From an uncultured delta proteobacterium (GTDB lineage: Bacteria; Desulfobacterota; Binatia; UBA9968), in assembly GCA_963840855.1 (NCBI GenBank), contig CAWJBB010000046.1:64001-128000 (forward strand): DNA of 64,000 nt, given 5' to 3'. The translations under genes and the position numbers were made by a program. The notes beneath the pieces were generated by a model that was given only the letters and a program-made list of their open reading frames with translations, searched no databases and was not told the DNA's origin. Shown one piece after another: positions 35,372 to 61,606 of this stretch; position 1 is the first letter of the stretch; each line of letters begins with the position of its first letter.

Positions 35372-35413
35372 TATGCCCCCGTAGCTCAGGTGGATAGAGC
35401 ACAGGATTCCTAA
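35372..35413 (+). repeat. Left att site: exact copy of the 5' half of tRNA-Arg(CCT)
   Basis: 42-bp identity with 54685-54726, ending at the 3' edge of the anticodon loop. Confidence 0.97.
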
Positions 35414-35530
35414 GCGTGCTCATCCGTTAAACTGAGTTCACTCCAGTTAATTTCAGCTAAGAAAATCAAGGTTCGAGTTGTGTTGAATGCAGTTGAGTTG
35501 AGTTGTGTTTGGCACGGGCGTGGCACAACA

Positions 35531-43782: not shown

Positions 43783-44088
43783 TTACCGACGGCGCTCGTA
43801 AACTTTCCTACCGCTCGCGCTGTAGTGATAACGACCGCCACGCGGTCCAATGTATGTAACTAGAGCTTCCTGTGAACTAGACTTTCGCTCGCTCAAACTC
43901 GACTTGGATTTATCCGGTGATTCCGTTTCAGTGGCTTGGGCACGATGGCAATGATAACCGCCGTTCTTTCTGTCATGATGGCAGCCCTTTGCGTCAAGGC
44001 CTCCGCCGTGCGGGTAAGCCGGAAGTGCTAGAAACAACAAGAACAAAAAGTTAACAACAGACCAAAGGCACAACGAAGCTGGTTTCAT
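43783..44088 (-). CDS. YHYH-domain secreted protein
   Basis: HGGGLDAKGCHHDRKNGGYHCH and GPRGGRY. Confidence 0.85.
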   Translation of the reverse strand: MKPASLCLWSVVNFLFLLFLALPAYPHGGGLDAKGCHHDRKNGGYHCHRAQATETESPDKSKSSLSERKSSSQEALVTYIGPRGGRYHYSASGRKVYERRR

Positions 44089-45467: not shown

Positions 45468-45605
45468 TGGGATACCTTCTGTAAAATAAACGGCCTCTCC
45501 ACGCCCCGATCAGCGAATGTTCATATCGTGGGTGGATTGGCGCACCTATATCGTAGCCGAGCGGACATGTTAGTGGCGTTGAACTCTAGGTTCATCCGCC
45601 GCGCT

Positions 45606-45920
45606 TCAAAGACCGGTGCATTGATAGGGGACTTTGACTATCCAACGATAACAGTCACCGCCCGATGCGTGAACGCACTGCCTCGTGGTTCCGCCGAACG
45701 CATGGGCATTTTCATAGCCCCATGCGCGGCACCTTTCTGCCGCCGTGGCAGCGGCGACATTTCTATCGACTTCCGGCTTCTCGAACATGCCGTACTCAAA
45801 ACCCATGCTCACGGTCCCGTCTGCGCGACTTCCGCCAAGCGGAACCATATCTTTTTGAACCGTACATCCGGCGCTGAGCATGAGCAGCATTGCTGCCATG
45901 ACGAGCTTGCGTCTTGTCAT
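45606..45920 (-). CDS. YecR-like lipoprotein
   Basis: SAGC lipobox; GGSRADGTV, RCRAWGY, AFGG, YQC. Confidence 0.85.
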   Translation of the reverse strand: MTRRKLVMAAMLLMLSAGCTVQKDMVPLGGSRADGTVSMGFEYGMFEKPEVDRNVAAATAAERCRAWGYENAHAFGGTTRQCVHASGGDCYRWIVKVPYQCTGL

Positions 45921-46717
45921 TTTTTTCTCCTTTTCAACTGGACTCGCACGTTTGCATCGTGCAGCTCGCGCTCGGCGAGTTTTTGCACGCGCTCTGGGGT
46001 GAGGTAAGTTTCGGCGTCTTTGAGCGTAGCTGAGCAATTCAGGTGCCAGTTTTTTCGCAACGGGTCTTTAGAGGGAACTATGAGGAATGCGGGGCTACCA
46101 CTATCGCCGCGCGGCTATAGCAAACTGGAAGGTCGTCGTAATCAACGCAGGAATGAGAAAGGGTTTTTCGTATCGCCGGACGGCGATAGCAGCGTACAGG
46201 GGTTGTTGGGACTTGAGGCCGTACTTTTTGACGAGGCGGAAGAGAGCGTTCTGGTTCATCTTTAACAGAACCGCCGCCTTATAGACGTTGCCTTCGGTCA
46301 GAGCCAGGGCCGTTAGAACCCCAGTGACTTAGATTTCGGTCCTGTTAAATAAACACGTTGGAACCGCCGACCCGGTGATGAAATAGCCTTTGTAGTCTTC
46401 CATAGCCGCCCGTCTATTATCGTCCAGCGGGCGGATGGTCAAGGCCCCCCTGCGCTGTCAAAGGGCCTCTTCCATGGTAAACATATTGAGAAACATTTTA
46501 CTGCAGGCGGAGGAGGGTTGGGGATGTGTTCTTTAACTCGGCTTGCCCTTCCGCTGAAAGCCGGGAGACCGACAGAAGGCAGCGATGCCACAGAAGAAAG
46601 CCGATCGCCTACAGCCTGAAAAATACGTAGGCAGCATTCGCGACCCAAACTATTCGTACGAAGAAAACCATTACGTTCTGACGCATTTTTTTCACGCTGG
46701 CCCTCACCCTCTGACGA

Positions 46718-47257
46718 GTGGAGTTTATAAACGTTGGGGGCACGGTCAGAGTGGAGACTCCCTTTTCACTATCGAGGAAAAGGAGGATCTCGCACGTTCT
46801 TACGCCAAGGAAATTGACCGGGTTCTCGGGCCCCCTTTTTCTCCAGAGGCAGGTTGCATTGACAGACCCCCCGCAAAGCCGCAAATTGAAGTCGAAAGGA
46901 AACCCGAAGGTGGACCCCCTAACGAACGCATACCTGCAGTGGATGTGCGACAACCAACCGGATTACGTCCGGGAGTTACTCCAGAAAAACCAGATAGGGG
47001 AACTGGACCGGGTGTTAGCCCTATCGGTGGACCCGGCGTGGAGGTTTTACCACCAGAGGAGGGCGGAGGGAAAGGAATACTCGGAGGCGATCGACCTGGC
47101 GATGGAGGCGTTGATACCGAGAGAAAACCCGGAACTGGGCGACCAGGAAGAGATGAGCCAAGAGGACCAGCAGTTAGTCAGGAAGAAACTCGAACGGAGA
47201 CAGGAGATCTGGGATTGGTTAACCGGGCTGCAAAGCCAACGACCCGGACAGGCGTAA
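46718..47257 (+). CDS. Hypothetical helical protein, nested out of frame within ORF 46585-47760
   Basis: Globular composition (YLQWMCDNQPDYVRELLQ...); start uncertain. Confidence 0.5.
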   Translation: MEFINVGGTVRVETPFSLSRKRRISHVLTPRKLTGFSGPLFLQRQVALTDPPQSRKLKSKGNPKVDPLTNAYLQWMCDNQPDYVRELLQKNQIGELDRVLALSVDPAWRFYHQRRAEGKEYSEAIDLAMEALIPRENPELGDQEEMSQEDQQLVRKKLERRQEIWDWLTGLQSQRPGQA

Positions 47258-47868
47258 ACCACGCCCCTGGATTTCCGGCCTCTTGTCAGCTTGCCACGTT
47301 TCATTTCTCAGTTCCGCCCGGCACCGTCGGCGGTGGTATTTCAATGGGCAGCACTTCCTCGTCGGGACGAAGGGGTCTAAATCGCGCGGTTTCGGCGGGA
47401 TTTGGTGGATTCCACGTGATTGCCTGCCAAGCGCACTCGGCGGGAGTCATTAAGGCCATCTTGCGCCGTAGCGCAATTGTCACACGGTTCGATTGGTCGT
47501 TTAAGTTCTCCAAGATGCTCGTGCCTGCATCCAGGCCCTCTGGCCGCATGGTTTTAATCAGATCCAGTGCCAGCCGCCTAGCTTCACGAGAGTCGGCGCG
47601 CGCCTTCTCAATCAGGTACGGTCTTTGTCTCGCCTCTAGAATCCCGCACGGATGCGGCGAACCGAAAGAAGAACCATGTGAGGGCAAGGTAGGCCGCTAT
47701 AATTCCCACCATGCCGACGAACAAATGCTTCATTGTAATTTTGCCCATGGGTCCGCGTGAGCCTTAAACCATGGCGGGCATTCTCCCCCCGGAAACCAGC
47801 CCAGGTCAACCTCAAATTCTGTTATTGATTTCTACCACCAAAAACTTCAAAGTCGCTTTGTAACCCAC

Positions 47869-47974
47869 GGGGTCTAGGGTAGCGCACCCGAAAAGCCGGT
47901 TAAAGGATGAACGCCAGTTCATCCCCTCCTGCCGGCCTGACCCCTTCATGAAAGCAGGAGGCCGTCAAGGAGGG
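47869..47974 (+). ncRNA. Structured leader RNA with downstream target repeats (element B)
   Basis: GGGGTC/GACCCC, GGGT/ACCC, GCCGG/CCGGC, GGATGAAC/GTTCATCC; CCTCCTGC complements 47954-47961, and CCCTCCT complements 47968-47974. Confidence 0.65.
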
Positions 47975-47978
47975 CGGG

Positions 47979-48737
47979 ATGAAAACAACCAAGAATACAT
48001 TCGATGTAGAATCTGCTTTTGTCTGGGGCCCTTGGCAAAAACAGATCCAAGAAACCTTCGACAAGGCCGGACCCATCATCGAAAAACTCTCGCCTGAGAT
48101 TGACCCAGGATATATTTATTACCTACTTCGAGAGCAGACTTATATCGCCATGAACAGGGCCAATGCTGACCAGCGGAAAATTGAACAATCGTGGGTCAAG
48201 TTATGTCATGCACTAGAGACCTTTCTGTCATGCGCTTTCGGTAGTAAACCTTTGCGAGAAATCGAGCGAGCTTTGGCGGAAGCCGCGGGAGAAGAGAAGG
48301 CAAAGCTGAAGCTACAGGTGAGACCAGAAGAACTAGCCCCTACGCCCTCTAAAGAAATGCTGAAGGCATTGAATAGCTATGCAGATGAACTCGGACTTCT
48401 GCGCTACAAGTGGGTGGTTAGCGAAGACCGGGCAGGTGGTAGACCACCTGCTGAGTGGACTAATGACGTGGCTTTTGCCATGGAAGTGCACTTTACTGCG
48501 AAGTTGGGAACGCCGCAGCGAAGGGTTATCAGTCAACTCCTCTTCTGTGCCCCCGCGGCGGCCTCCATATCCATGGAACAAAAACAGATTCGCCAGAGAC
48601 TTTCTAAGAAAAGAAGAGAAAACAAAAAGCCCATATTGTCTAACATGGCCTACGATCTAGAACGTCCCTACCGCGAATGGGTTGAAGCAGGAGCTAAAGG
48701 ACCGTGTCCCTCTTTTTGTCCACCGGTCAATTTTTAG
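47979..48737 (+). CDS. Hypothetical protein, first gene of the element B operon
   Basis: 252-aa ORF with AGGAGG RBS; GGRP motif and basic C-terminus. Confidence 0.7.
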   Translation: MKTTKNTFDVESAFVWGPWQKQIQETFDKAGPIIEKLSPEIDPGYIYYLLREQTYIAMNRANADQRKIEQSWVKLCHALETFLSCAFGSKPLREIERALAEAAGEEKAKLKLQVRPEELAPTPSKEMLKALNSYADELGLLRYKWVVSEDRAGGRPPAEWTNDVAFAMEVHFTAKLGTPQRRVISQLLFCAPAAASISMEQKQIRQRLSKKRRENKKPILSNMAYDLERPYREWVEAGAKGPCPSFCPPVNF

Positions 48738-48925
48738 AAAGCCCACGTCTGATACTCGGTTATCTGAGGAAACTTTCACAAAACTCGCCACGAACCTGCA
48801 CCAAAAATACGCGCAACCAAGACAAAAATAGGGAGCGATAAACCAGTTAGGGTTTATCGCATCGTGACAAAGGGGCTGAGAGTGGTCAAACTGCTCTCAG
48901 CTTTTTTATTTTCACGAGGTGAAAG

Positions 48926-49105
48926 ATGATTGAAGAACCCATCGACCCCGAAGGTGCGGCCAAGGTGCTCGGGATCAAAACGATCACCGTATACAAGTGG
49001 GTGCATGAACGGAAGATCCCCTTCCTTAAAGTCGGCGGCGCTCTGAGGTTTCGGCCTTCGGCGCTTGAGGAGTGGCTGCGCCAACGCGAATTTTCACCGA
49101 AATAA
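48926..49105 (+). CDS. Excisionase-like HTH_17 protein (not in the ORF track)
   Basis: MIEEPIDPEGAAKVLGIKTITVYKWVHERKIPFLKVGGALRFRPSALEEWL; GAGGTG RBS. Confidence 0.9.
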   Translation: MIEEPIDPEGAAKVLGIKTITVYKWVHERKIPFLKVGGALRFRPSALEEWLRQREFSPK

Positions 49106-49164
49106 AGACAGCAGCGCCCCGGACATGCTGGCAGGCAGCCGAGGCGCGAAAAGGAGAGAATGCG

Positions 49165-49350
49165 ATGCAACAGATCAATAGCACAAACACGAACGGTGAT
49201 TCAATTCCAGCACCACGGGCACGCTGTATCGTCGAGTTTCTCGAGGGCGATACCAGTCGGCCGCCCATCGTTTATCCACTGGGGGGTTGCGACGAGATCG
49301 ACATGGCGATGTGCGATGCGATCTTGGAGAGGTGGGGAGCGCGGGAATGA
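49165..49350 (+). CDS. Small hypothetical protein
   Basis: AAGGAG RBS; ATGA overlap with rep. Confidence 0.55.
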   Translation: MQQINSTNTNGDSIPAPRARCIVEFLEGDTSRPPIVYPLGGCDEIDMAMCDAILERWGARE

Positions 49351-50183
49351 GCGTCAAAGTCATGACCCGCGTCTGGGAATATTCCCAGGCCAAACACTCG
49401 GAGCTTCTTATAATGCTCGCGCTGGCCGACTGGTCCGACGATGCCGGCGCGAGTTATCCGTCAATCCCAAAACTAGCCCGTAAGGCGAGACTCACAGGGC
49501 GCCAGACCAGGCGGGCACTCAATGAACTGGAAACTATAGGTGAGATTCACCGGAACAGGAGCAACGGTGGCCGGGATCGTCCAAATCACTACCTCATAAT
49601 CCTCACTGAAAACCCTGACAAAATTACCCTGAAAAAAATACAGGGTAAAAATTACCCTGAAAAAAACGACCAAGAAACCCTAGTAAAAATGTCAGGGGCT
49701 CTTATACGTCATAGAACCGTCAATAAGAAAGAGAGCACGGAATCAGACAAGCTGATTCCTGATTCTCTTTCCACCAAATCGAAGAGAAAACTTACCCGGC
49801 CGGCGCCTGACGATCGGGTTAAACCGTTCTTGACTTGGTTCGCCGAAGAGTACGAGAGGCGCATCGGCGGACCGTACGCCCCCAAGTGGGGTAAGGATGG
49901 CAAGCTCATCAAAGAGCTTCCTCCGGCTTTCGACCTGCCGAGGCTTAAAGACCTGGCCGTTCGCTTCTTTGAGTCTCCAGATCCATGGGTCCGGCAAAAC
50001 GGCGGGTTCACCGTTGGCGTTTTCATTAGTCAGATAAACAAGATCAGTTCCACCGGACCCGGCAGCAACGGCCACACCAAGCCCACCGAAGTGAAAGACT
50101 TGGACAACGGCATGGTTGAGGTCGATGGGCGGTCTATGGATCGGCGGACATACGAAAGGCGATATGGAAGCACAATCAACTGA
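49347..50183 (+). CDS. Phage-type replication initiator (N-terminal HTH) with internal origin
   Basis: LIMLALADWSDDAGASYPSIPKLARKARL; ACCCTG repeats at 49608-49698. Confidence 0.85.
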   Translation: MSVKVMTRVWEYSQAKHSELLIMLALADWSDDAGASYPSIPKLARKARLTGRQTRRALNELETIGEIHRNRSNGGRDRPNHYLIILTENPDKITLKKIQGKNYPEKNDQETLVKMSGALIRHRTVNKKESTESDKLIPDSLSTKSKRKLTRPAPDDRVKPFLTWFAEEYERRIGGPYAPKWGKDGKLIKELPPAFDLPRLKDLAVRFFESPDPWVRQNGGFTVGVFISQINKISSTGPGSNGHTKPTEVKDLDNGMVEVDGRSMDRRTYERRYGSTIN

Positions 50184-51006
50184 ATCGGCCAAGTTTGTTA
50201 CCCAGGACGAAGCCCGTACCCGGTGGCTCAAATCTTTAGAGGCGCGCGACCATCGCCGCTATTTCAAATCAGGGTTCAAGGCACACGAGCAATCTGTAGG
50301 TGCATTCCTGCGCGGCTCATTCAATCTTTTTGCTGCGCGTCCAGGCGTCGGGAAAACTGCTTTCTTGTTCGCCCTCGCCTATCGCCAGGTGTTGGCCGGC
50401 GTAAGGGCTTATTTCTGCAATCTCGAAATGGGCGCCGAGCAAATGTGGAACCGGCTGGCATGTCTCCATGATGAGTCTCTAACGCTGCGCGAATTGAACG
50501 AAGGCGAAATAACCGACAACCGCGTCCAATACTTGACGGCGCTATCCGAAAAGCTGGCGGGGTTCTCGCCGTTGTTTTTCGAGAGCACCGAACTTAGGGC
50601 GCTGATTGCGGCGACCCAAGCGGAAATCAAGCCGTCGTCCGACTCGATCCTCTTTGTTGATTATATCGGCCTATTCACTGACAAGCGTTTAGGCCCGCAA
50701 GAGCGTTATTGGCTAATATCCGAATGCGCGAAGGCTCTAAAACTTCTCGCCCGTCAATTGGACATTCCCATCATCGCGGCTGTGCAACTCAACCGGCAGC
50801 TAGAAAACCGCAAAGATAAGACACCGACGCTGGCAGACTTAAGAGATTCGGGCGAACTCGAAAACCACGCTGATTCAGTATTCGCATTGACCCGCGAGGA
50901 TCGCGGCGTGTTGGAAATTGATTGCTTAAAAAATCGTCACGGTCCGCTTGCATCGTATTCCCTCCGATTCGACGGCCCGCGGGTGGCGCTGGAGGAATTT
51001 GATTGA
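50164..51006 (+). CDS. DnaB-like helicase (C-terminal ATPase domain only)
   Basis: ARPGVGKT, LEM, VDYIGL, QLNR, DLRDSGELENHAD, KNRHGP. Confidence 0.92.
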   Translation: MEAQSTESAKFVTQDEARTRWLKSLEARDHRRYFKSGFKAHEQSVGAFLRGSFNLFAARPGVGKTAFLFALAYRQVLAGVRAYFCNLEMGAEQMWNRLACLHDESLTLRELNEGEITDNRVQYLTALSEKLAGFSPLFFESTELRALIAATQAEIKPSSDSILFVDYIGLFTDKRLGPQERYWLISECAKALKLLARQLDIPIIAAVQLNRQLENRKDKTPTLADLRDSGELENHADSVFALTREDRGVLEIDCLKNRHGPLASYSLRFDGPRVALEEFD

Positions 51007-51755
51007 TGCAATTCACCGCGCCTTACGCCCTAATCGGCGACAGTGCAAACCTTGCGTTGCATCTTCACCCGGATCATCTGGCAGACTTGCGAGCGTCAGG
51101 CCTGCGCGATGAGACAATCCGCGCCGCCGGCGTCTATTCGCTCGCGCCACGATTCATTGAGCACTTTTTCGGGAGTGTACCAGCCGAGGTTCAAACCGCG
51201 CTTTGCTTTCCTTATCCGGGCGGCGACTTCGCTCGGATCAAGCTCTTTCCCGCGTTAGGTAAGATGAAATATTCCCAACCGCCCAAAACTGGCGCCCGGC
51301 TTTACCTCCCCTTCGAGGTGAAGGACGGCTCGTTGTACGTGTGTGAAGGCGAGAAAAAGACGTTGGCCGCACATCAGGCCAGCATGAACGCGGCCGGGAT
51401 TGGTGGGCTTTGGAATTGGCTGACGAAAGGTGAGCCCATTGATGACCTAAAACTTATCGAGTGGGACGGCCGTGACGTTATCATCATTCCAGATTCTGAC
51501 GTGTTTCAACGCCAAGACTTACTTAGAGCGGTTTATGCCCTGGGCCGCGAGCTGAGAGGGCGCGGGGCGTCGGTCAGCGTCGCCGAGATCCCGCAACCGG
51601 GACAGGAGAAGATCGGACTTGATGACTACTTTGTGGCGGGCGGGCGCGTCGATGATCTGCAAACGTGCACTCTTGGCGGGCAAACCTTCCGGTCAGCGTC
51701 ATTCTGGTATGGGCAATGGAAAATAAAAACGGCGACATTAGCGACAGCGGCGTGA
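51003..51755 (+). CDS. DUF3854/TOPRIM primase-like protein
   Basis: KYSQP, CEGEKK, GIGGLWNW, PDSD, KIGLDDY. Confidence 0.88.
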   Translation: MMQFTAPYALIGDSANLALHLHPDHLADLRASGLRDETIRAAGVYSLAPRFIEHFFGSVPAEVQTALCFPYPGGDFARIKLFPALGKMKYSQPPKTGARLYLPFEVKDGSLYVCEGEKKTLAAHQASMNAAGIGGLWNWLTKGEPIDDLKLIEWDGRDVIIIPDSDVFQRQDLLRAVYALGRELRGRGASVSVAEIPQPGQEKIGLDDYFVAGGRVDDLQTCTLGGQTFRSASFWYGQWKIKTATLATAA

Positions 51756-51799
51756 GGAGCAGGCGGCAACATAGGCGAGCGCAAGGAAGGGAAAAACCA

Positions 51800-52264
51800 A
51801 TGGAGGACGTGACTATGACTGACGCACAGGAGCTTTGGCTGATTGCCGAGAGGCGGAGAGCCTATGCTAAGAACGTGACGGCGCACGAGGTAGATTATAA
51901 CGTTGACGATGATGGGCTTGCGCACATCGTGGAGGACTCGATCAGCGAGTTTATCAGGTGTTGGTATACGTTCTACATCGAAGGCCAGACTTGCCGCCGT
52001 GATGCCGCTGTACTCGATTGGGCACCAATACGAGCGATGACGGCGGCGCTTCTCATGAATCCAGAGCGTCTACGCCGGGTCATCGAAGAGTTTCAAAAGA
52101 GGCACAAGTACAGGGAGGACGAGCTGTTCGACCCGGTAGTGGCGTTGATCAGCGAGAAGCTACTGGACGCAGCAGGTGCGATAAACGATGGTAATGAATG
52201 GACGGTGCCGCAGGATGTCATGGAGAAGCTGCGAGAAAATGCGCACCCAACGGTGCGGCATTGA
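51800..52264 (+). CDS. Hypothetical protein
   Basis: Operonic ORF with helical composition. Confidence 0.6.
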   Translation: MEDVTMTDAQELWLIAERRRAYAKNVTAHEVDYNVDDDGLAHIVEDSISEFIRCWYTFYIEGQTCRRDAAVLDWAPIRAMTAALLMNPERLRRVIEEFQKRHKYREDELFDPVVALISEKLLDAAGAINDGNEWTVPQDVMEKLRENAHPTVRH

Positions 52265-52356
52265 AAGCGGCGAGGGATGACTAGGCGGCGAATAGGCGGG
52301 CACTTTCTGAAGCCGATCCCGATTAAGCCTAACCAACGAAAAACCAACGAAAACCG

Positions 52357-52659
52357 ATGAAATTTCAGAGGGGCAACAAACTAGCCGCAGGCGGCCGACG
52401 CGATCCGGCAGGCGGGCGGCCTACAAGGGCAGCTCTCGAAGCGCAGGAAGCTAGACTCGCCGTCTGGCAAAAGGAATTGGAGAAAAACGAATTGATACTT
52501 GCGCGGCGCTACATCAAGCGAGCCATGAAATCAGACCGGGTTTTGATCGACGCTCGCAAGGCGACCGTACCGGATGCCAAGAAGGAGATCGAGCATTCCG
52601 GCGAGGTAGGCGTTCGGCCGTGGCTTGTCGATGCCTACGAGCCAAAGAAAAAGAAATGA
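52357..52659 (+). CDS. Terminase small subunit-like protein
   Basis: KFQRGNKLAAGG...GGRP N-terminus and KEIEHSGEV C-terminus. Confidence 0.6.
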   Translation: MKFQRGNKLAAGGRRDPAGGRPTRAALEAQEARLAVWQKELEKNELILARRYIKRAMKSDRVLIDARKATVPDAKKEIEHSGEVGVRPWLVDAYEPKKKK

Positions 52660-52852
52660 GGATGATTGCTCTTATTGGTCTGGGCCAGTTTTACGCGCCA
52701 AGCGCACAGATCGACTGCGACGCCGACCCGATAGCCCATGAGCGATAGATCGTCGTTTATGTACAGTGTGCACGCCGCAGAAATGCATCATTTGAAGGAA
52801 TGCTTCGCAATCAAATCATCGACGCCATGAAGGGTGGGCATAAGCGACTTCT

Positions 52853-53206
52853 ATGATCGAGCAAACCCTAAACCCGTTTGACCCGTTCTTCGAGAAGATC
52901 CGGGAAATTGTCCGCGAGGAGTTAAAGGCGGCCGGGAACGGGAACGGACACGGGGGCAATATTACCGAGACAGACAAAAAGGAACTGCAACGCTTGAAGG
53001 CTTTGGCGGCTGGAAAGGCGGCAGTCCAGGCAGGCGCATTGCTTACCGCCGAGCAATTGGCCGCGATGTTACAGGTCGACAAAGCGACGGTGTACGAACG
53101 AGTGAAGAAAAAAGCTATCCCTTTCTATCAGGCCGGGCGCTTTGTGCGATTCAATCTCGATGAAGTTTTAGAGAGTCAACGAAATAAAAACGACAATCCT
53201 TCTTGA
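52853..53206 (+). CDS. Excisionase-family HTH protein
   Basis: LLTAEQLAAMLQVDKATVYERVKKKAIPFYQAGRFVRF. Confidence 0.88.
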   Translation: MIEQTLNPFDPFFEKIREIVREELKAAGNGNGHGGNITETDKKELQRLKALAAGKAAVQAGALLTAEQLAAMLQVDKATVYERVKKKAIPFYQAGRFVRFNLDEVLESQRNKNDNPS

Positions 53207-53238
53207 CGGACTGTAAGTATTATGCTTATAGTGGGTTT

Positions 53239-53427
53239 GTGACTGGCAGGGACTTCAAGAAGATGCGGCTTGCGAAAGGCTACAGTCAATCACAGTTAGC
53301 GCGTGAACTGGACGTGCATGTGGTGACGGTTTCAAAGTGGGAGAGGGGAGTTGTACCGATCCCGCGCATGGCCGAGCTGGCGCTTTCGTCCTTAAAGCCC
53401 AGGTCAAAACCAAAGAAGGGGGTTTAG
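53239..53427 (+). CDS. XRE/Cro-like HTH, probably leaderless
   Basis: RLAKGYSQSQLARELDVHVVTVSKWERG; GTG lies 6 nt after TTGACG-18 nt-TATAGT. Confidence 0.85.
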   Translation: MTGRDFKKMRLAKGYSQSQLARELDVHVVTVSKWERGVVPIPRMAELALSSLKPRSKPKKGV

Positions 53428-53429
53428 CT

Positions 53430-54607
53430 ATGGCAGCAGTTTACAAAGTGGGCAAGAAGTGGCGCGCGGACTTTACCGACAAGGAAGGCTTTCGCCACCG
53501 CCAGAGGTTCAAAACGAAGGGGGAGGCGGACGCCTATCTCACCGAGAAAAAGTCGGAGCTTAAAGACGGCACCTATGTTTCACCCAAAGACATACCGACC
53601 TATGGTGCTCTAGCGGATTCGTGGATTGCGGGCAGGATCGAGCAGTCACGGACACCGGGGGCGGGCTATCGGCCGTCAACCCTGGCGCAGTGGCAAACCC
53701 ATGTTGCGCACATGAAAGCGTGTTTTGGCGAAAACAAGAAAGTTAACGACATCGACGCGCAGGCAATTGAAAGGGCAATCGGCAAACTCCGGCTTGCGAA
53801 AGAGCAGGGCGGCCGCGGGCTATCGGTCAAGACCGTGGGCAAGGTGCTTACCACCATGAGCCGGATCTTCAAGTTTGGGATCCGCAATAAATGCGGTATC
53901 CAGACCGATCCGACAAAGCTTATCGAGAAGGTAAAGGACAGTTCTGGCGAGCAGACAGAAACGGGCGAGCGGCTGAATGTCTTACATGAAGTCACGGAAA
54001 AGGAAGTGCTCACGCCCGAGGAAGCCAAGCGCGTGATCTTGGCGGCCAAGCCGGGGCTTTACAGGACTATCATTCAGACAGCGATCTACACCGGCGCAAG
54101 GATCAGCGAGCTCCTGGCGCTAAAATGGCCGGACGTGCACCTTGATGGCAGCGTTATCGACATTCGCCGAAGCGTATCAACGGCAAAGGTGAAAGGGGAG
54201 ATAACGCAAGAAAAGTACCGCTGGTTTGATCCCAAGACGAAGCGCGGGGTTAGAGAAATACCGATCCCCCCGCAGTTAGTCGCGGCGCTCAAGGAATGGA
54301 AAGAGAGGGGTCCGAAGAGCCGGCTTGATTTGGTATTCTGTAACGGGTTTGGCGAACCCTGCGAACGAACCGGAATGGGGCGCTATGGGCTAAAGCCGGC
54401 GCTTAAGCAGGCGGGTATTGATAAGGCGGTTACGCCGCACGGACTGAGACACACCTATGCGTCAATGCTCATTCTGCTCAAGAGACCGATAACGGAAATC
54501 TCTCACTACCTGGGCCACGCGGATGTTTCAATCACGATGCGCATTTCTTGAAGCCGAAGAAACAGGACACGATGAGCGACTTGGAAAGGCTTATCGAGAA
54601 TGGCTAG
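53430..54607 (+). pseudogene. Tyrosine integrase with a frameshift that removes the catalytic Tyr
   Basis: TGARISE, PKTK, HGLRHTYAS, LGHAD; ends ITMRIS* at 54551, while HFLKPKKQ...IENG* continues in another frame to 54607. Confidence 0.9.
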
Positions 54608-54687
54608 CCAAAAGTTCTTTGGCACAGTTAGGCACAGTTTGACACAGAAGGGGAAAAATATAATTGTAAGTAGCTGATATTGCTTAT

Positions 54688-54761
54688 GCCCCCGTAGCTC
54701 AGGTGGATAGAGCACAGGATTCCTAATCCTGGGGCCGCGTGTTCGAGTCACGCCGGGGGCA
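54688..54761 (+). tRNA. tRNA-Arg(CCT), CCA not encoded
   Basis: GCCCCCG...CGGGGGC-A; anticodon loop TTCCTAA; T-loop TTCGAGT. Confidence 0.97.
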
Positions 54762-54784
54762 TTTCTAAGTAATCAAATCTCAAG

Positions 54785-54817
54785 GGGAAAGCTGGAAACA
54801 GCTTTCCCTTTTCTTTT
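54785..54817 (+). terminator. Intrinsic terminator after tRNA-Arg
   Basis: GGGAAAGCTG-GAAA-CAGCTTTCCC followed by a T-tract. Confidence 0.9.
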
Positions 54818-54999
54818 GTCCAAGCGTCCAATGTCTCTAAAATGTCTCTATGGCGGCGCCCGGGCGCCCTTAGGCGGCGGTTTTCGTCGTTTATGGTGCT
54901 CCGGTAGCTACGTGTGGCTAAAACTTTGAGCTTGTCTGAGATACTCGCCAAGGACAACGACACGCCGGCCAACCGCAATGGCGCCGCGGATGGTGGACA

Positions 55000-55239
55000 A
55001 TGACAAATATTGAATTCGCTCAAGCATGGACACGCAAGCTTGAAGCGTTGGGAATCGTCCTGAATAACGGCATCGTGCTGACCGGCCCGGCAAGGTTCGT
55101 CGAGCGCCCGCTTCATCCACACCCGAGCCGTGGAAGGAAGAAAATTCACGCTTCTGGCTACGCGAGACTCAAAGCACACCGGTGGAGAAAGTCAGGCATC
55201 CGGATAAAGGTCACGGATGATAACGAAATAGGTTTGTAA
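55000..55239 (+). CDS. Small basic hypothetical protein
   Basis: 79-aa ORF with GGTGGA RBS-like site. Confidence 0.45.
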   Translation: MTNIEFAQAWTRKLEALGIVLNNGIVLTGPARFVERPLHPHPSRGRKKIHASGYARLKAHRWRKSGIRIKVTDDNEIGL

Positions 55240-55703
55240 CTACCGAGATTGAAAGGAGAAAAAAGGGCCATTTTTCGCGTATGGCTATAACACCATTAAC
55301 CGGGGATTTTCGTTATCATTGAGGGCTCAACTGGCCACCATAGCTTAGTAGGACACAAATGGGCTTCTCCCGGAAGCATCAAAATTGCGGCGATGAATAT
55401 CAGACCGGTAAAGGTACCAGGCCATGAGCCTTTCGAAACGATCAGGGAAAAAATCCAGAATTGACGGCATTTAGGGAAAGATCGCCGAAGCGCCGTCCAG
55501 GTTTCATTTCGTTTATTTCCCTCTTGCCCTTCAAAGCTGTCAATCGAATGTCACCCATTGTCAAGACAAGCACGGCCGTTTAAAATGATTATTTCGGAAC
55601 CATGACCCAAGCAGATGCAAAAGAGGCACTAGAGAGATTTAACCGGGTACAGGGGGCATGAGCAGGAAGAAAATAGGTCCGAAATGGAGGAGAAAGGAAT
55701 CTA

Positions 55704-56765
55704 ATGAAGATATTCTTGGGTTTGGGTTTGGCGGCGGCGGTATTCCTAGCGAGCAGCGCCGGGGCAGCAGAGATTCCTCACAAGTTCAGGATTTTGGATA
55801 TTAAGATACCGGGGCAGGCTTGGCCCCGCGCAGCCCTGGTAGATATTAACAAGTGGGGCAAAGTGCTTGCCCACACGCCAATGTTAAACGGCGACACGGT
55901 GAGCATTTTGAGCGACGGCAAGACATCACACAAGCCTTTCGGCTGTAAGAAAGAAGCGGGCGAGACTCTAAGTTATACCTACGCAACAGCTTTGAATGAT
56001 AAGAACTATTCGGTAGGTAATTGTTATCTCTGGAATCCTACAACGGAAAGCTATCGGACGATTGCATTTCTGGCGACTCCGACAGGCCGGATAGTGGATC
56101 TGACGAGTCTCAATGTCGCGTACCAAGCTTTTAGCTTTTTACAACCACAAGGCATGAGTCCCGGCAGCCAATACATTACGGGGAATTTTTATAACGGCGT
56201 GGACTCATTTCCACATTGCTTCTTGATCGACAGAGTTGCGGGATCTTTTACCGACATCGCTTTTCCATCTCCGATACCGACGGCAGACGTGAATAGCAAC
56301 TGCGTTGGCGTCAATAAATTCGGACAGGTTCTTGGGGAATATGTCGCTAATGACCTAGCGACAAACGAGAGCTTGGAACACGGCTTTTTCCTATGGGACA
56401 AAGGCGTTTTTTCAATTCCATTGCCCTTGAGCCACGATATTGATGGCGGGCCATACACTATCGCTTATGACATAGAAGGGGATACTGACGCCCTTCTAGG
56501 ACTTTACAATGGCAACGACGGCACAGGGTATGCGGTTTTCTTCTTCGATGACGGGGTTAGCTACGGCATCGCCGAGCCCGCTAATTGGGCCGTAAATGAT
56601 CTTGGCGGCATGAGCACTCGGGGAACATTCGTCGGCAATGTCACAATTTTCAAAGGGCTAGATAAATTTTGTATGGAAGTTGTTGGCGACCCGGATTATT
56701 GCGCCATTGAAGAAAGCCACGGGTTTGTCGCCACGCCGGCGCCTATCAAGGTCGCTTCAAAGTGA
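55704..56765 (+). CDS. Secreted beta-repeat protein (HAF-repeat-like)
   Basis: Signal peptide; repeats DINKWGKV, ALNDKNYSVG, GVNKFGQVLG, HGF. Confidence 0.75.
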   Translation: MKIFLGLGLAAAVFLASSAGAAEIPHKFRILDIKIPGQAWPRAALVDINKWGKVLAHTPMLNGDTVSILSDGKTSHKPFGCKKEAGETLSYTYATALNDKNYSVGNCYLWNPTTESYRTIAFLATPTGRIVDLTSLNVAYQAFSFLQPQGMSPGSQYITGNFYNGVDSFPHCFLIDRVAGSFTDIAFPSPIPTADVNSNCVGVNKFGQVLGEYVANDLATNESLEHGFFLWDKGVFSIPLPLSHDIDGGPYTIAYDIEGDTDALLGLYNGNDGTGYAVFFFDDGVSYGIAEPANWAVNDLGGMSTRGTFVGNVTIFKGLDKFCMEVVGDPDYCAIEESHGFVATPAPIKVASK

Positions 56766-56902
56766 AGCTGCGAGGCCAGTTCGAGACAATAGGTGAAAAC
56801 GCAATCGAGTTTTTCAACAGGGTTTCAAGGAGTGGCTAATCGTGAGTAAAATCGTTCATATAAGGCGTAAAGCTTGGAACCCGCAAAACCAAAGGAGAAC
56901 CT

Positions 56903-57280
56903 ATGGCAGACGGACCGGGCGGTAGATTCACGAAGGGTCATAAACTTGCCAAAGGCGGGCTAAGGGATCCGCCTGGAGGCAGGCCAACCAAGGCGGAAGT
57001 GGCGCGCCGAGAATCGCTCAAGGAGGTTCTAGAACGTCTACGCGAGGAAGAGGCGAACACGTTAGCGGCCAGATACTACGAGATGGCCAAAGATGATCCG
57101 GCGACCATGCGGCACGCGGTTGACAAGGTTTTGCCCAACGCAAAGCAAGAGATAGGCGTTACCGGCGATGTCAACGTGGGCCTCAACCGCGAATCGATCA
57201 TCGCCTTGATGGCGACCAAGGAAGGGCGCGAGGCTGCATTGGCTATCACTAAGGCGCTGGCGGGGCAATCTAAGCCGTAA
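56903..57280 (+). CDS. Terminase small subunit-like protein, paralog of 52357-52659
   Basis: RFTKGHKLAKGGLRDPPGGRPT versus KFQRGNKLAAGGRRDPAGGRPT; PNAKQEI versus PDAKKEI. Confidence 0.6.
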   Translation: MADGPGGRFTKGHKLAKGGLRDPPGGRPTKAEVARRESLKEVLERLREEEANTLAARYYEMAKDDPATMRHAVDKVLPNAKQEIGVTGDVNVGLNRESIIALMATKEGREAALAITKALAGQSKP

Positions 57281-57388
57281 TGGAACCCGCCCAACGTTTA
57301 CCATACCGGCAATTATTAAAGCGGCGGCGGCAGAACGGCGAATGCTTCGAGTGCTTTTGCGGCAGTGGGCGGAGCAAGTGAAAAAAGT

Positions 57389-57607
57389 CTACTCTCTTAC
57401 TCGAAGGCAAGCAGTAGTAGAAGTGGTAGTAGCGCAAATCCATACGCGACCAGTCCAGTTGTCCATAACGTAAACCCCCGTATGACCCTCCGGGGTTATG
57501 ACGGCGGCCGTCATTCGATAACGAAAATCCAACGCAATAAGAAAAAGCATAATAATCGCTAAAGCCAAGACGAGCGCCTTCAATCTATCCAAAAGTTTTT
57601 CCTCCAT
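57389..57607 (-). CDS. Small membrane protein
   Basis: One TM helix plus MDNWTGRVWIC. Confidence 0.6.
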   Translation of the reverse strand: MEEKLLDRLKALVLALAIIMLFLIALDFRYRMTAAVITPEGHTGVYVMDNWTGRVWICATTTSTTACLRVRE

Positions 57608-57671
57608 GCCATACTCTCTTCAAAACATCTATTATTTGGACGCCCATTTTGTCCATGCTCTAAGCGCCTCT

Positions 57672-57884
57672 TCAATCGCCTTTGTGTCGCCGGTAGAGTG
57701 TTAGCCAGACGAGCCCGCAGATGATCCAGATTGCAAGCACAATGCTGACTTTCTCGACAATCCGGATCACAACGATCCCAGCTCCATACATCCGAACTTC
57801 AAGACCATCGGGCCAACCGACCATCAGAGTGACGATCGAAAGCAATCCGCCTACCCACAAAATTATCAGCTGGCCCCGTTTCAT
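57672..57884 (-). CDS. Small two-TM membrane protein
   Basis: Two hydrophobic helices. Confidence 0.6.
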   Translation of the reverse strand: MKRGQLIILWVGGLLSIVTLMVGWPDGLEVRMYGAGIVVIRIVEKVSIVLAIWIICGLVWLTLYRRHKGD

Positions 57885-57995
57885 CTAGAAGGCCGAGATG
57901 ATTTCCACTGTTCCGACGAACAAATGTTTCATTTTGTAATCTTGCCCACTGGGCTGCGTGCGCCTTAACCGATGGCACGCGCGACGGACGGCAGA

Positions 57996-58412
57996 TCAAA
58001 CGTCGTCATCGTGCCTCCATTCATCGTAGAGTCGGGCTCGCTCGTCTCTGGCCTTATCGATGCAGCGCAATACGATAGCGGCGCAAAGCCAGTAAAGTAC
58101 CGCCGCAAGTATACATCCGATGACCCCCGCTTCCTTACCGAATATTATGCCCACGAGGAAGCCGAGCATGAAAACTACAAAAACCCCAACGACGATCTCT
58201 CCCGAGAAGTGTGCGTCCGGTTCGAAGCGATCATCCAGATTGTGATATTTCTCTCTGAGCTTGATCCGCTCTTGCGCGCTGAGGTATCCAAAACGAATAA
58301 GCCGGCGCCGATCAAACTCACCTCTAAGGTGTCGTTGTTCCAGATCCGCCTTTTCTTCTTGCGTTAGTTCAGACCACGGTTTCATATGCCAGAATCTCCC
58401 AAGGGAGATCAT
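57996..58412 (-). CDS. Two-TM membrane protein
   Basis: GGAGG RBS; central hydrophobic hairpin. Confidence 0.6.
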   Translation of the reverse strand: MISLGRFWHMKPWSELTQEEKADLEQRHLRGEFDRRRLIRFGYLSAQERIKLREKYHNLDDRFEPDAHFSGEIVVGVFVVFMLGFLVGIIFGKEAGVIGCILAAVLYWLCAAIVLRCIDKARDERARLYDEWRHDDDV

Positions 58413-58536
58413 TCACGACTGTCTAACACCTCCATGAATAGCCGGGTCGCATTCTCGCGCAGGAAAGCAATCCCCGTCAAACGCATTTTTCGTTGCTTTT
58501 CCAGCCCAAATCCTTACATTGGGGAAGTGCATTCCT

Positions 58537-58632
58537 GGGGTCTAGGCTGATCACCGAAACGGCCCGGAGATTCTCACACGCCGGGCCTGGCCTCTTTCTC
58601 TGCCAAAGGTGTGAGAGAAACAGTGTGAGAGG
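58537..58632 (+). ncRNA. Structured leader RNA with downstream target repeats (element C)
   Basis: GGGGTC/GGCCTC, GGCCCGG/CCGGGCC; loop TCTCACAC complements GTGTGAGA at 58609-58616 and 58623-58630. Confidence 0.65.
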
Positions 58633-58896
58633 ATGTCAAAACCTCCAAGCAAAGCGACCAAGCGTCGCACTCGAAAACCGCTCGATGCAAGCGAGTTCTC
58701 AGACCGCCAACTATTGATCCATTGGGGCCGTGTTCTACAGAGCCAGCAACTGTGGCTCGCGCAAATTATTCAAAGCCTCGGCGCACCGCTACTGCCAGGT
58801 ATACCCGAACGGCTCCGCCAGAACCTGTCTCGTGAACACTTGAGAGCTTGGCTGAATGATGGGGTTTCCGCTGAACTTAATCAGTGGGCTGCTTAA
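58633..58896 (+). CDS. Small hypothetical protein directly after the leader RNA
   Basis: ATG is 2 nt after the second target repeat; may be a frameshifted N-terminus of the next ORF. Confidence 0.5.
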   Translation: MSKPPSKATKRRTRKPLDASEFSDRQLLIHWGRVLQSQQLWLAQIIQSLGAPLLPGIPERLRQNLSREHLRAWLNDGVSAELNQWAA

Positions 58897-59647
58897 GGCA
58901 TCTAACGAAGAAAGTTCAGTCAGGAAAGAGATAGCGGGAAGGCTGACAGGTGCGGTCGTGTCCAGATTGATCGATGTCCGCGGCGAGAAGGTCGGAAGGA
59001 GCGATAGCTTGCCGGATAACCTAAGAGAGATACGGCGGGCCTTCATGGTAGACAGGATTAAGGCAAAGCAATCCATACCTGATGATGAGGATGCCAGGAG
59101 CGATGTGTTTCTCGACGCCTGGACTGAGCTTAATCGACAGGCTGAGTCGATAATAAAAACTTCATGGCCCTTGCCGACAGCAGAAAGCGCCTTTGAAGCT
59201 GACTTATATGAGCGATGGCAAACAGACGTGCTATCGGCCTTGAAAAACCGCTGGATTGCTTTCCTTCCAATCTTGGTGGAACGAGAAGCGGTAAACTACA
59301 TGCCAGCAAGAATCAAGATGGATCAAATCGACAGGGCACGGTCTAAGGCAGCAAAGAAACGGAAAGGCATCGAAGTCGAGTATGATGAGACATTACACGA
59401 GGAGCCTTTGATGCCTGCCGGCGATAATTCAGAAGAAACCAAGCTCTTAGAATCAGAAGGTGTACGAAAACGGCTAAAAAAACTGGATGAGGCGGCAGAT
59501 AGATATGCCCCAGAAACGGGCCGAGCTATTCGATTGATTTTAAGAGAAGGTTATAGCCAAAAAAGAGCAGCCGAAGCTGAAGGCATCCCAGAATCTACCT
59601 TGAGTGAGAGGATCATAAGAGAAGAAATCGAAAAAAGTGACCTCTAA
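58856..59647 (+). CDS. Regulator with C-terminal HTH (sigma region 4/Psq-like)
   Basis: EGYSQKRAAEAEGIPESTLSERI. Confidence 0.65.
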   Translation: MMGFPLNLISGLLKASNEESSVRKEIAGRLTGAVVSRLIDVRGEKVGRSDSLPDNLREIRRAFMVDRIKAKQSIPDDEDARSDVFLDAWTELNRQAESIIKTSWPLPTAESAFEADLYERWQTDVLSALKNRWIAFLPILVEREAVNYMPARIKMDQIDRARSKAAKKRKGIEVEYDETLHEEPLMPAGDNSEETKLLESEGVRKRLKKLDEAADRYAPETGRAIRLILREGYSQKRAAEAEGIPESTLSERIIREEIEKSDL

Positions 59648-59961: not shown

Positions 59962-60737
59962 GCGTAAAAATCATGGCTAAAGTCTGGGCAAGTTCACACC
60001 GCAAGGACGGCGAGCTTCTTGTCATGCTTGCCCTGGCGGACTTTTCAAACGATGCCGGCGAGAGCTGGCCGTCAATCCCGACGCTCGCGCAGAAGGCTCG
60101 ACTAACTGAGCGGCAAACACGACGCGTCTTAAGGAAACTCGAAGAAGCTGGAGAGATCCGCCGAGTAAAGAGCAACGGCGGCCGGAATCGGCGGAATCAC
60201 TACTTCATTACCCTCACTGAAAACCCTGATAATATTACAGGGAAAGAATTACAGGGTAAAAATAACCCTGTTATTGGCGACACTAAACCCCTGACGCCCA
60301 TGTCAGGGGCATTAAACCATCATAGAACCGTCAATAAGAGCGGCGCTAAAGCGCCTTGTGATTCTTCTCCATCCCGAAGGGAAAGAAAGAATACCCGCGG
60401 CGCCAGCATCCCGCCCGAGCTTCAAGCCGCCGTTTCCCGCATCGTCGCCAAAATCAACGAACTGGGTGGCACTCGCTACCATGACGACAGCCCGGACGCT
60501 CTCCACAATTTGATTGCCCGTTTGCGCGATGGCCGGACCGAGGCCGAGTGCCTGGCCGTGGTAGAAGGCCGCCACGCGGCATGGGCGGACAAAAAAGAGA
60601 TGCAAGAGTATTTCCGCCCGAGCACGCTATTTGCCGCGGTGCACTTCGAGGATTATTTGCAGGCCGCGCAGAGACAGAGCAACGGCGCCGCCGAATCCAA
60701 CCCCGAACGGCGAAAGGAACTTTTTATCAATGCCTGA
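59958..60737 (+). CDS. Phage-type replication initiator with internal origin and conserved phage C-terminal domain
   Basis: LVMLALADFSNDAGESWPSIPTLA; CCCTG/CAGGG repeats at 60220-60309; YFRPSTLFAAVHFEDYL. Confidence 0.88.
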   Translation: MSVKIMAKVWASSHRKDGELLVMLALADFSNDAGESWPSIPTLAQKARLTERQTRRVLRKLEEAGEIRRVKSNGGRNRRNHYFITLTENPDNITGKELQGKNNPVIGDTKPLTPMSGALNHHRTVNKSGAKAPCDSSPSRRERKNTRGASIPPELQAAVSRIVAKINELGGTRYHDDSPDALHNLIARLRDGRTEAECLAVVEGRHAAWADKKEMQEYFRPSTLFAAVHFEDYLQAAQRQSNGAAESNPERRKELFINA

Positions 60738-61602
60738 GAAGACTGCCCTGGAATACGTGGCGATGGCCGATGCCGTGCGCGATTTCGCCAAAGGCATGGA
60801 CGCGCAGACCGAAGACGACTTTTTCCCTACCGGGTTTCGGTCGCATGATTTAGCCCTCGGGCGGCTGCGCCGCGGATCCCTGACTTTTGTTGGCGCCAGG
60901 ACATCGATGGGGAAAACCGCCCTCATGCTCAATATGGCGCTGGCGCAGATGAAAGCGGGCGTACAAGTCTATTTCTTCACGCTCGAGATGCCGCGAAACG
61001 ATATGATTGCCCGCCTTGTGAGTATCGCAACCGGCATTCCCCTTTTGGATATCCTGCAAAATCGTGTTGACGAGAAACAGGTACGCGAGATCGGCGGCGC
61101 CCTACCGATTCTATCGCCGCTTCCTGGGAATTGGACCGAAGAGGGAAACCTAAAACGAATCGGCGAACTGTTCAGCCGGATTGAACCGAAGAGCAGAAGC
61201 ATCGTTTACGTCGACTTCCTGGGGCTTGTGCAAGTATCGGGACTAGACGCAACGCAGCAATACGCTGTGACGACCGAAGCCGGGTTATCGCTGAAGCGCG
61301 CCGCGATGGGGCTTCAGATTCCCGTGGTGGCCGGGGTGCAATTGAATCGCCAAGTCGAAGCCCGAAAAGAAAAGCATCCGCTTTTGTCAGACTTCAGGGA
61401 TAGCGGCCGGCTCGAAGAGATTGGCGATGTCTGCCTTGGGCTCTATCGCCCGGGCTTTTATGACAAGAACGCAGACACGGAGCTTCAGGTTTTTTGCCTG
61501 AAGAACCGTAACGGCCCGCGCGTCAACTATGTTTTGGAATGGTACGGACCATGCGCCAGGGCGACAGAGAAGCACAAACTGTCATGGCCGGAGGTTGCGT
61601 AG
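60730..61602 (+). CDS. DnaB-like helicase (C-terminal domain)
   Basis: ARTSMGKT, LEM, VDFLGL, QLNR, DFRDSG, KNRNGP. Confidence 0.92.
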   Translation: MPEKTALEYVAMADAVRDFAKGMDAQTEDDFFPTGFRSHDLALGRLRRGSLTFVGARTSMGKTALMLNMALAQMKAGVQVYFFTLEMPRNDMIARLVSIATGIPLLDILQNRVDEKQVREIGGALPILSPLPGNWTEEGNLKRIGELFSRIEPKSRSIVYVDFLGLVQVSGLDATQQYAVTTEAGLSLKRAAMGLQIPVVAGVQLNRQVEARKEKHPLLSDFRDSGRLEEIGDVCLGLYRPGFYDKNADTELQVFCLKNRNGPRVNYVLEWYGPCARATEKHKLSWPEVA

Positions 61603-61606
61603 GTCG

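Follow-up and report, generated by a model that had tools for sequence, protein, structure and literature searches.

The stretch of DNA analysed here, 64,000 nucleotides (nt) of an uncultured delta proteobacterium of the Binatia (contig CAWJBB010000046.1, positions 64,001 to 128,000; hereafter the window), carries two related elements, B and C, at one tRNA gene, and the operon leading to the replication genes of each begins with a short structured leader RNA. This RNA consists of a conserved scaffold of three helices (P1, P2 and P3) and a variable loop, called here the guide, whose complement is found at two sites, T1 and T2, just downstream. Across a collection of homologous loci we observe the scaffold helices, covariation of the guide with both T1 and T2, a fixed geometry of the leader, and the position of T2 at a ribosome-binding site. 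All sequence strings named in an earlier, sequence-only reading of the window are present at their places in both copies, as verified by direct reading, and the parts of the two leaders are as follows.

47869..47944, + strand: scaffold of copy B, starting with GGGGTCTAGG at 47869 (covariance-model scores given below; helix covariation)
47869-47874 with 47939-47944, + strand: P1 of B (direct reading, fold)
47877-47880 with 47886-47889, + strand: P2 of B, a small hairpin occupying 47877-47889 (direct reading, fold)
47895-47899 with 47932-47936, + strand: P3 of B, GCCGG/CCGGC (direct reading, fold)
47936-47944, + strand: closure of B, CCTG-ACCCC (direct reading)
47905-47924, + strand: extra 20-nt hairpin in the P3 loop of B (fold)
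47924-47932, + strand: guide of B, CCCTCCTGC (direct reading; predicted duplex of -16.3 kcal/mol with T1 and -14.1 kcal/mol with T2)
47954-47961, + strand: T1 of B, GCAGGAGG (direct reading, alignment column counts)
47968-47974, + strand: T2 of B, AGGAGGG, at the Shine-Dalgarno position, followed by 4 nt and the ATG at 47979
58537..58594, + strand: scaffold of copy C, starting with GGGGTCTAGG at 58537 (clade model score given below)
58537-58542 with 58589-58594, + strand: P1 of C, with two G-U pairs (direct reading)
58545-58546 with 58554-58555, + strand: P2 of C (direct reading)
58561-58567 with 58581-58587, + strand: P3 of C, GGCCCGG/CCGGGCC, with the loop at 58568-58580 (direct reading)
58571-58579, + strand: guide of C, TTCTCACAC (direct reading)
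58609..58617, + strand: T1 of C, GTGTGAGAG (predicted duplex with the guide, -14.3 kcal/mol)
58623..58631, + strand: T2 of C, GTGTGAGAG, adjoining the ATG at 58633 (predicted duplex, -13.5 kcal/mol)

In copy B the string CCGAAAA follows the P2 hairpin, and the last G and C of the guide are able to lengthen the P3 helix in the fold. The B guide had been described as a single strand, but its first C is the last base of the extra hairpin; this hairpin, of 8 bp and placed just 5' of the guide, is found only in B among 75 aligned loci. Folding of the 82-nt B scaffold recovers the structure as drawn (z = -4.4, with none of 200 shuffled sequences equal to it), and the C scaffold folded alone is not distinct from its shuffles (z = -0.4). 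In copy C, GTGTGAGA occurs at both 58609 and 58623, ahead of the ATG at 58633. Duplexes were folded per site, the fold of the whole leader being dropped as one internal loop bridged both B sites; the predicted energies are -13.5 to -16.3 kcal/mol for cognate B and C pairs and -4.1 to -7.7 kcal/mol for the cross pairs. Shuffled guides match the energy of the own duplex in 10 of 1000 cases for T1 of B, and in 3 and 6 of 1000 for T1 and T2 of C, respectively. The strong evidence for the predicted guide-target pairing is comparative, across loci.

At the gathering scores, Rfam identifies three tRNAs in the whole window and nothing else. In a permissive scan with 4227 Rfam models (E ≤ 10), copy B matches the int-alpA motif, RF02996, with 34.4 bits and E = 1.9e-5, and the C region yields no relevant match, so both copies miss the curated gathering score of this family, 35.8 bits. 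Copy B falls below it because of the extra hairpin at 47905-47924 inside its P3 loop. The three helices of int-alpA are all present, with P1 closing the structure, P2 after CUAG, P3 after CGAAAAG, and the CCUG closure; the scaffold and its junction bases are common to int-alpA and the B and C copies, and classical members of the family show the layout of a loop and twin targets too. The Rfam model stops inside T1, and T2 lies outside it. As the family name implies, int-alpA RNAs are located between an integrase and an alpA-type gene. Copy B is placed differently, the RNA (47869) being followed by the HTH_17 gene (52853) after 4.9 kb and by the integrase gene (53337) after 5.4 kb: the B and C RNAs head an operon with the alpA-like and integrase genes at its far end, about 5 kb on.

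The sequence-only reading proposed a C4-type RNA, and this candidate was rejected, as the full scan of both regions at E ≤ 10 gave no match to C4, c4-2, c4-a1b1, IsrK or any other model of the C4 clan. The leader does share with this clan an exposed loop able to pair with targets that are repeated on its own transcript, one of them over a ribosome-binding site, with one loop instead of two. The same reading held that a strong Rfam hit would make this a known system, which is half true here: the scaffold is the known int-alpA motif, a functional orphan, and B is just below its cut-off. It comes from Weinberg et al., 2017 (PMC5737381), where the main text, the part covered by this check, contains no occurrence of "alpA" and gives no function; we found no account of the loop and twin-target logic in the literature, a search outside which lie the 2017 supplements, which may note a pseudoknot or a downstream match. 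Both the scaffold, a functionally orphan motif of Rfam, and the class of mechanism were known before; no publication found links the two or describes the twin-target architecture or the range of codes.

For the comparative analysis, homologous loci were collected with covariance models and a pattern. RF02996 matches 11 of 90 same-family genomes, the window's own included, at E ≤ 0.01, seven of them over the cut-off, the scores of the relatives being 35.4-45.8 bits; two of the 11 genomes (G018 and G040) are unpublished. A clade covariance model, R1, built from 12 published copies, scores B at 50.7 and C at 48.6 bits, finds only these two copies in the window's own genome, and has matches in 15 of 123 genomes of the order and 6 of 151 sampled genomes of the class. 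The pattern search, with scaffold bases fixed and the loop and all downstream sequence free, retrieved one viral, 10 genome and 102 metagenome stretches, of which 91 loci were examined (including 80 of the 102 metagenome stretches). R1 confirms 71 of these 91, the other 20 being chance or sub-threshold matches, and the confirmed genome matches come from Deltaproteobacteria, Binatia and Desulfobacteraceae metagenome-assembled genomes. The pooled set comprises 93 matches, which reduce to 80 unique ones; in 77 of these the downstream sequence reaches 80 nt or more.

At least two sites complementary to the P3 loop, each with six or more pairs (Watson-Crick and G-U) and located within 80 nt downstream, are present in 60 of the 77 unique loci. 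We observe 38 distinct 11-nt guides forming about 19 code classes, among them CCCTCCTGC, TTCTCACAC, TTCTCCCAC, CTTCTCGC, ACTCTCA, TTTCCTCA, CGCTCCG, GCTTCC, CCCACCCCG, ACTCCGCA and GACTCTGCA, so the fixed scaffold with a variable loop, originally seen in two copies, extends over all of these classes. With guides of equal length and Watson-Crick pairs only, the mean score over 19 classes is 12.1 for own guides vs 5.7 for foreign ones, and in eight classes none of the other guides among the 19 equals the own one (binomial P = 2.6e-6), several of the remaining classes being outscored only by near-identical codes. This scoring replaced an earlier one, which allowed G-U pairs and unequal guide lengths and separated own, shuffled and foreign guides poorly (own 13.0 vs shuffled 9.4, with 14 of 77 loci beating 99% of shuffles). 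Direct repeats of the leader, identified blindly with respect to the guide, have their reverse complement in the own loop in 34 of 69 loci, compared to 66 of 1242 comparisons (5.3%) with foreign loops and two cases elsewhere in the own scaffold; this exact-substring test under-counts, as the repeats often extend beyond the paired core.

Covariation was further assessed on an alignment of 75 loci (A5), realigned to a covariance model of scaffold and leader (R2; structure P1-P4 only, 63 published loci) and not fitted to the guide-target pairings. Guide and T1 are paired in 83.1% of cells, compared to 34-52% for slid partners, with 38 cells changed on both sides against a shuffle mean of 14.3; for guide and T2 the respective values are 77.6%, 39-70%, 31 and 15.2, and in neither case do any of 500 shuffles reach the observed count. 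The covariation suggested as a check by the sequence-only reading is therefore observed for both downstream sites. Two other measures, counting pairs or pair types, are not above the shuffles (344, 89, 423 and 210 of 500), and the shuffle control ignores relatedness; for these reasons the weight is carried by the slid controls and the class-level test. The scaffold helices, aligned with MAFFT over 63 loci, are paired in 97% (P1), 97% (P2) and 96% (P3) of cells, with 12 of 16 pairs changed on both sides, no shuffle of 500 reaching the observed value, and slid partners paired in 30-58%. G-U pairs are seen in P1 and in the guide-target columns, e.g., UG in 14 cells at one pair.

The geometry of the leader is nearly constant. 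T1 starts at a median of 11 nt after P1 (5th-95th percentile, 9-15 nt), the T1-to-T2 spacing has a median of 14 nt, and in 55 of 66 loci T2 is followed by a start codon (44 ATG, 6 GTG and 5 TTG) at a median distance of 5 nt, which places T2 at the Shine-Dalgarno position. The linker after P1 is U-rich and G-poor (7% G).

Similar trends are observed in classical int-alpA RNAs. A pattern derived from the Rfam consensus, with P3 set to GCGGG/CCCGC and the loop free, identified 44 loci in viral contigs, 31 of them unique, with 18 distinct loops; all 13 loci scanned exceed the RF02996 cut-off (42-67 bits). Both sites are present in 28 of the 31 unique loci, the own loop is strictly the best for 6 of the 18 loops (P = 3e-4), and the modes of the site spacing and of the gap from T2 to the start codon are 11 and 6 nt, respectively. 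One classical locus is 97-98% identical to three Escherichia coli chromosomes over 800 nt. In one E. coli chromosome, NZ_CP054407.1, the RNA is directly behind the integrase gene of an element encoding a KilAC antirepressor, an Icd-like protein, a DUF927 primase-type protein, a major capsid protein and a prohead protease, a layout that we take to be that of a capsid-forming phage-inducible chromosomal island.

Some scaffolds of the collection differ from this arrangement. Five loci with good scaffold scores (L010, L011, L072, L093 and L115) have no targets detected downstream, and these may be decayed copies or stand-alone guide genes. Two metagenome contigs carry paired scaffolds on one strand, 860-960 nt apart: the codes differ between L084:1531-1643 and L084:2393-2500, and are the same in L089:3821-3946 and L089:4782-4883, the first of which has neither T2 nor an ORF (open reading frame) start.

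Upstream of P1, a sigma-70-like motif ending 8-18 nt before the helix is found in 15 of 70 loci, vs 3.2 ± 1.6 in shuffled sequences. Both copies of the window have a weak site of this kind; a stricter promoter scan found no + strand promoter ahead of either scaffold.

47825..47853, + strand: weak promoter-like site of B (TTGATT, 17 nt, CAAAGT), 7 of 12 matches, -10 box ending 15 nt before P1
58493..58520, + strand: weak promoter-like site of C (TTGCTT, 16 nt, TACATT), 7 of 12 matches, -10 box ending 16 nt before P1

On the opposite strand, promoter-like sites at 47780-47809 (-) and 58451-58480 (-) lie at an equal distance upstream of the two scaffolds and have near-identical hexamers (TTGACC in one and TTGACG in the other, 18 nt, GAGAAT). 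They would drive small hydrophobic ORFs at 47608-47748 (46 aa), 57996-58412 (138 aa) and 57672-57884 (70 aa), and a 44-nt stretch is 82% conserved between 47691-47734 and 57890-57933. A divergent gene encoding a protein repressor was considered and rejected: the upstream ORFs of B and C are not homologous, and the small ORFs are hydrophobic rather than of the helix-turn-helix (HTH) type. The region of the conserved small ORF and the promoter-like site on the minus strand is also covered by a + strand ORF of 391 aa (46585-47760), which is Gly/Pro/Arg-rich, is assigned to no family and may not be a real gene.

Behind the leaders, both elements encode an O-like initiator, a DnaB-like helicase and a DUF3854 protein, in line with the sequence-only description of an operon leading to rep.

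47979..48737, + strand: first ORF of B, 252 aa, no known family
49287-50183, + strand: HTH_36, O-like initiator of B (domain scan)
50116-51006, + strand: DnaB_C helicase of B (domain scan)
51003-51755, + strand: DUF3854 primase-like protein of B (domain scan)
52853-53206, + strand: HTH_17 protein of B (domain scan)
53337-54551, + strand: integrase of B (domain scan)
58633-58896, + strand: first ORF of C, 87 aa, heading the C operon
58856-59647, + strand: HTH ORF of the C operon, 263 aa
59958-60737, + strand: HTH_36 and Phg_2220_C initiator of C (domain scan)
60631-61602, + strand: DnaB_C of C (domain scan)
61529-62359, + strand: DUF3854 of C (domain scan)
L193:2804-3982: integrase of C, past the window end, the operon running beyond 64000
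54687..54762, + strand: tRNA-Arg(CCT) between B and C, rebuilt from halves given by both elements
35372..35418, + strand: displaced 5' half of the tRNA, 96% identical (repeat family D3), the left boundary of a 19.3-kb insertion ending in B
L193:4117-4159: displaced 3' half of the tRNA, after the C integrase

The first ORFs are diverse across loci, of 31-455 aa and mostly 190-300 aa; comparison with Pfam gave no family for 9 of 10 tested and one weak MerR match below the cut-off. One homologous cluster of first ORFs (n = 8) carries three codes, hence the code is not tied to the gene. The tRNA repeats share a core, the anticodon loop ATTCCTAA, and the displaced chromosomal halves sit at the two outer ends; tRNA-Arg(CCT) appears to have obtained its 5' half from the left-hand insertion and its 3' half from element C. 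The half repeats thus indicate that the 19.3-kb insertion ending in B and the 11.4-kb element C flank one rebuilt tRNA, which agrees with the initial suggestion of two related elements, here with different codes, at one tRNA. The integrases of B and C are 29% and the helicases 35% identical, and the first ORFs are unrelated. Among the genes characteristic of phage satellites, those for the integrase, xis-like protein, initiator, helicase and primase-like protein are present; no capsid, terminase or packaging families were found in the B and C ORFs scanned, so that B and C, called satellites in the sequence-only reading, are candidate satellites.

The 19.3-kb insertion, which may be one element or an older element plus B, also has cargo unrelated to replication within 35419-47800, namely genes for an ATP-dependent DNA-ligase-like protein (37259-37882), a NosD-like protein (37997-38848), a MASE1-GAF hybrid histidine kinase (41000-43696) and a YecR-like lipoprotein (45606-46037). 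Within the B initiator gene, at 49620-49666, the 19-nt string AAAATTACCCTGAAAAAAA is repeated exactly in tandem, with copies 28 nt apart, and could be an iteron or origin-like feature.

The closest known systems are antisense RNAs of phages and satellites. The c4 RNA of P1 and P7 lies upstream of its own targets in one operon and covers the icd ribosome-binding site, with the target sets repeated, and the CI RNA of P4 is processed by RNase P. Unlike c4, which has two loops (a' and b') and a cloverleaf, the B and C RNAs have one loop on a three-way junction, and they match none of the Rfam models C4, c4-2 and c4-a1b1. According to PMC4825925, P4 CI RNA has two sites of pairing and holds the replication genes silent; like the B and C RNAs, it originates from the leader of a replication-gene operon of an integrative element, and has one guide (seqB) with two complementary sites on the same transcript. 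However, the P4 sites flank the RNA (seqA upstream, seqC downstream) and P4 acts by transcription termination, whereas both B and C sites are downstream, T2 is on the ribosome-binding site, and the scaffold has no match to C4-clan models of Rfam. The third system, IsrK of Salmonella Gifsy-1, is described in the same source (PMC4825925) as a leader RNA, also existing as a short RNA, whose target, both in cis and in trans, is its own read-through mRNA; it shares with B and C the position in a leader, but opens a structure to activate translation and has a Rho-independent terminator, none being seen in B and C. On the best reading, the B and C RNAs would work like P4 CI and P1 c4 without being members of their family.

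With moderate confidence, we propose that the leader RNA represses translation as an antisense RNA directed at its own transcript, from the head of an operon for replication, excision and integration, in the manner of P1 c4 and P4 CI. In this model an int-alpA-type RNA would open the operon of each element, and its P1/P2/P3 scaffold, with the conserved CUAG, CGAAAAG and CCUG junctions, would display a variable loop of 7-13 nt. The partners of this guide would be two copies of its complement carried by the same RNA: T1, about 11 nt beyond P1, and T2, about 14 nt further, over the Shine-Dalgarno sequence of the first ORF; T2 may often be exposed in the loop of a small hairpin, permitting loop-loop contact. 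Pairing with T2 would block ribosome binding and repress the first ORF, and coupling or polarity could extend the repression to the initiator, helicase and primase genes behind it. T1 would offer a further place for docking, as seqA/seqC do in P4 or a1b1/a2b2 in P1, and would either increase avidity or draw cis-made guide away from T2; with competition, full repression would require extra guide RNA from other copies and hence sense copy number or immunity. We infer that the RNA represses, acts in trans and is released in a short form, as well as the function assigned to T1. A mainly cis action is favored by the generic anti-Shine-Dalgarno nature of the commonest code, the lack of a terminator and the co-residents with the same code; specificity between molecules is favored by the wide occurrence of other codes and by the precedents.

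Several observations weigh against this proposal. One or both sites are lacking in 4 to 17 of the 77 loci, depending on the criterion (one site in 13 loci, none in 4), and the counts of sites, scores and repeats include two loci (L003 and L004) from unpublished genomes. The duplex of the B guide with T2 is equaled in energy by 549 of 1000 shuffled guides, because this G-rich site pairs with any C-rich string. The commonest code, in 44 of the 77 loci, is close to a generic anti-Shine-Dalgarno string and would therefore be unspecific in trans. No terminator after P1 was found by a terminator scan, and a run of at least four T within 8 nt is present in 6 of 66 loci. The T2 hairpin is only modestly enriched: a stem of at least 4 bp around T2 is seen in 83% of loci vs 64 ± 5% with shuffled flanks, and in 96% of the classical clade vs 78 ± 7% in the control, whose maximum is also 96%, while the class of copy C has no such hairpin. 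One code per element, initially suggested, finds no clear support as a rule of orthogonality: of five co-resident pairs, three have different codes and two share a code, which is about the expectation from class frequencies. Finally, the precedent of IsrK (PMC4825925) shows that a similar layout can activate instead of repress.

Part of these observations would fit a riboregulator acting only in cis, which we consider possible, with a lower probability than the antisense repressor. Here the guide would switch within one molecule between T2, where it blocks the ribosome-binding site, and T1, a decoy that leaves this site open, on a cue from a protein, a ligand or folding kinetics, with neither a released RNA nor immunity between elements. 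Such a device would need nothing beyond the approximately 110 nt of one transcript that hold all the parts, nor a terminator after P1, and it would tolerate co-resident copies with the same code and a generic commonest code, made specific only by proximity; moreover, the CUAG, CGAAAAG and CCUG strings conserved in both clades suggest a surface for the binding of a factor. However, codes have diversified far from the Shine-Dalgarno core (GUGUGAGA, AAUCGGG, CGGAGCG), which is more readily understood if molecules must be told apart, although neutral compensatory drift could also produce this; and among known systems, the nearest ones in which one guide serves two targets work in trans.

Activation is unlikely. 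The guide, in cis or in trans, would have to open a hairpin holding the ribosome-binding site and the spacer, and so turn translation on, like IsrK on anrP. The 3' strand of the T2 hairpin does fill the spacer to the start codon in many loci, and IsrK, both a leader and a short RNA, activates in trans (PMC4825925); but it is the Shine-Dalgarno bases that the guide pairs with, and this should keep the ribosome off, and in the class of copy C there is no hairpin to open.

Still less probable are sites acting at the DNA level, where two direct repeats and an inverted copy would be bound by one element-encoded DNA-binding protein of evolving specificity. The start-to-start distances of 11 nt in the classical clade and 13-14 nt in this one are near one helical turn. 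A comparison of G-U with A-C mismatches, as a measure of selection at the RNA level, is compatible with DNA sites as well as with RNA pairing: restricted to the interior of the duplexes it gave 3 G-U, 1 A-C and 3 other cases, a first version (A-C 54, G-U 29, this clade) being confounded by the conserved helix flanks. Against this, the inverted copy is always in the loop of P3, a covarying RNA helix, and T2 keeps the Shine-Dalgarno distance to the start codon in both clades, and these two features make the reading unlikely; moreover, the sites are approximately 50-100 nt downstream of the likely promoter rather than over it, and the G-U pairs noted above occur in P1 and in the guide-target columns. 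Coincidence, by which pyrimidine-rich loops match purine-rich ribosome-binding regions through composition, could account for the behavior of T2 in B and for the G-U-allowed scores given above, but can practically be set aside in view of the covariation on an unfitted alignment, the scores of own vs foreign guides, codes unlike any Shine-Dalgarno sequence, and the geometry fixed in two clades.

An extension of the antisense repressor is more tentative, and we regard it as rather doubtful. The int-alpA RNAs might determine immunity or incompatibility in a very wide range of integrative replicons, in which two-site titration, with T1 bound in cis and T2 closed by surplus guide, senses the number of copies with the same code and shuts the replication operon, ignoring other codes and allowing tandem residence at one tRNA. 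If so, their range would extend from capsid-forming satellites of E. coli to elements of uncultured deltaproteobacteria-type lineages, each element having a short RNA "address", with at least 19 codes seen in this clade and 18 in the classical one, reprogrammable via three short strings.

These results offer a concrete, testable candidate mechanism for an Rfam RNA family so far without a function, which is also present in E. coli elements of the phage-satellite type, where genetics is easy. The natural codes on one scaffold may constitute a ready set of candidate orthogonal translational regulators. To our knowledge, it is not settled how replication genes are silenced in Gram-negative satellites of this type, and an RNA covering the site where ribosomes bind ahead of the first early gene would provide one way to do so.

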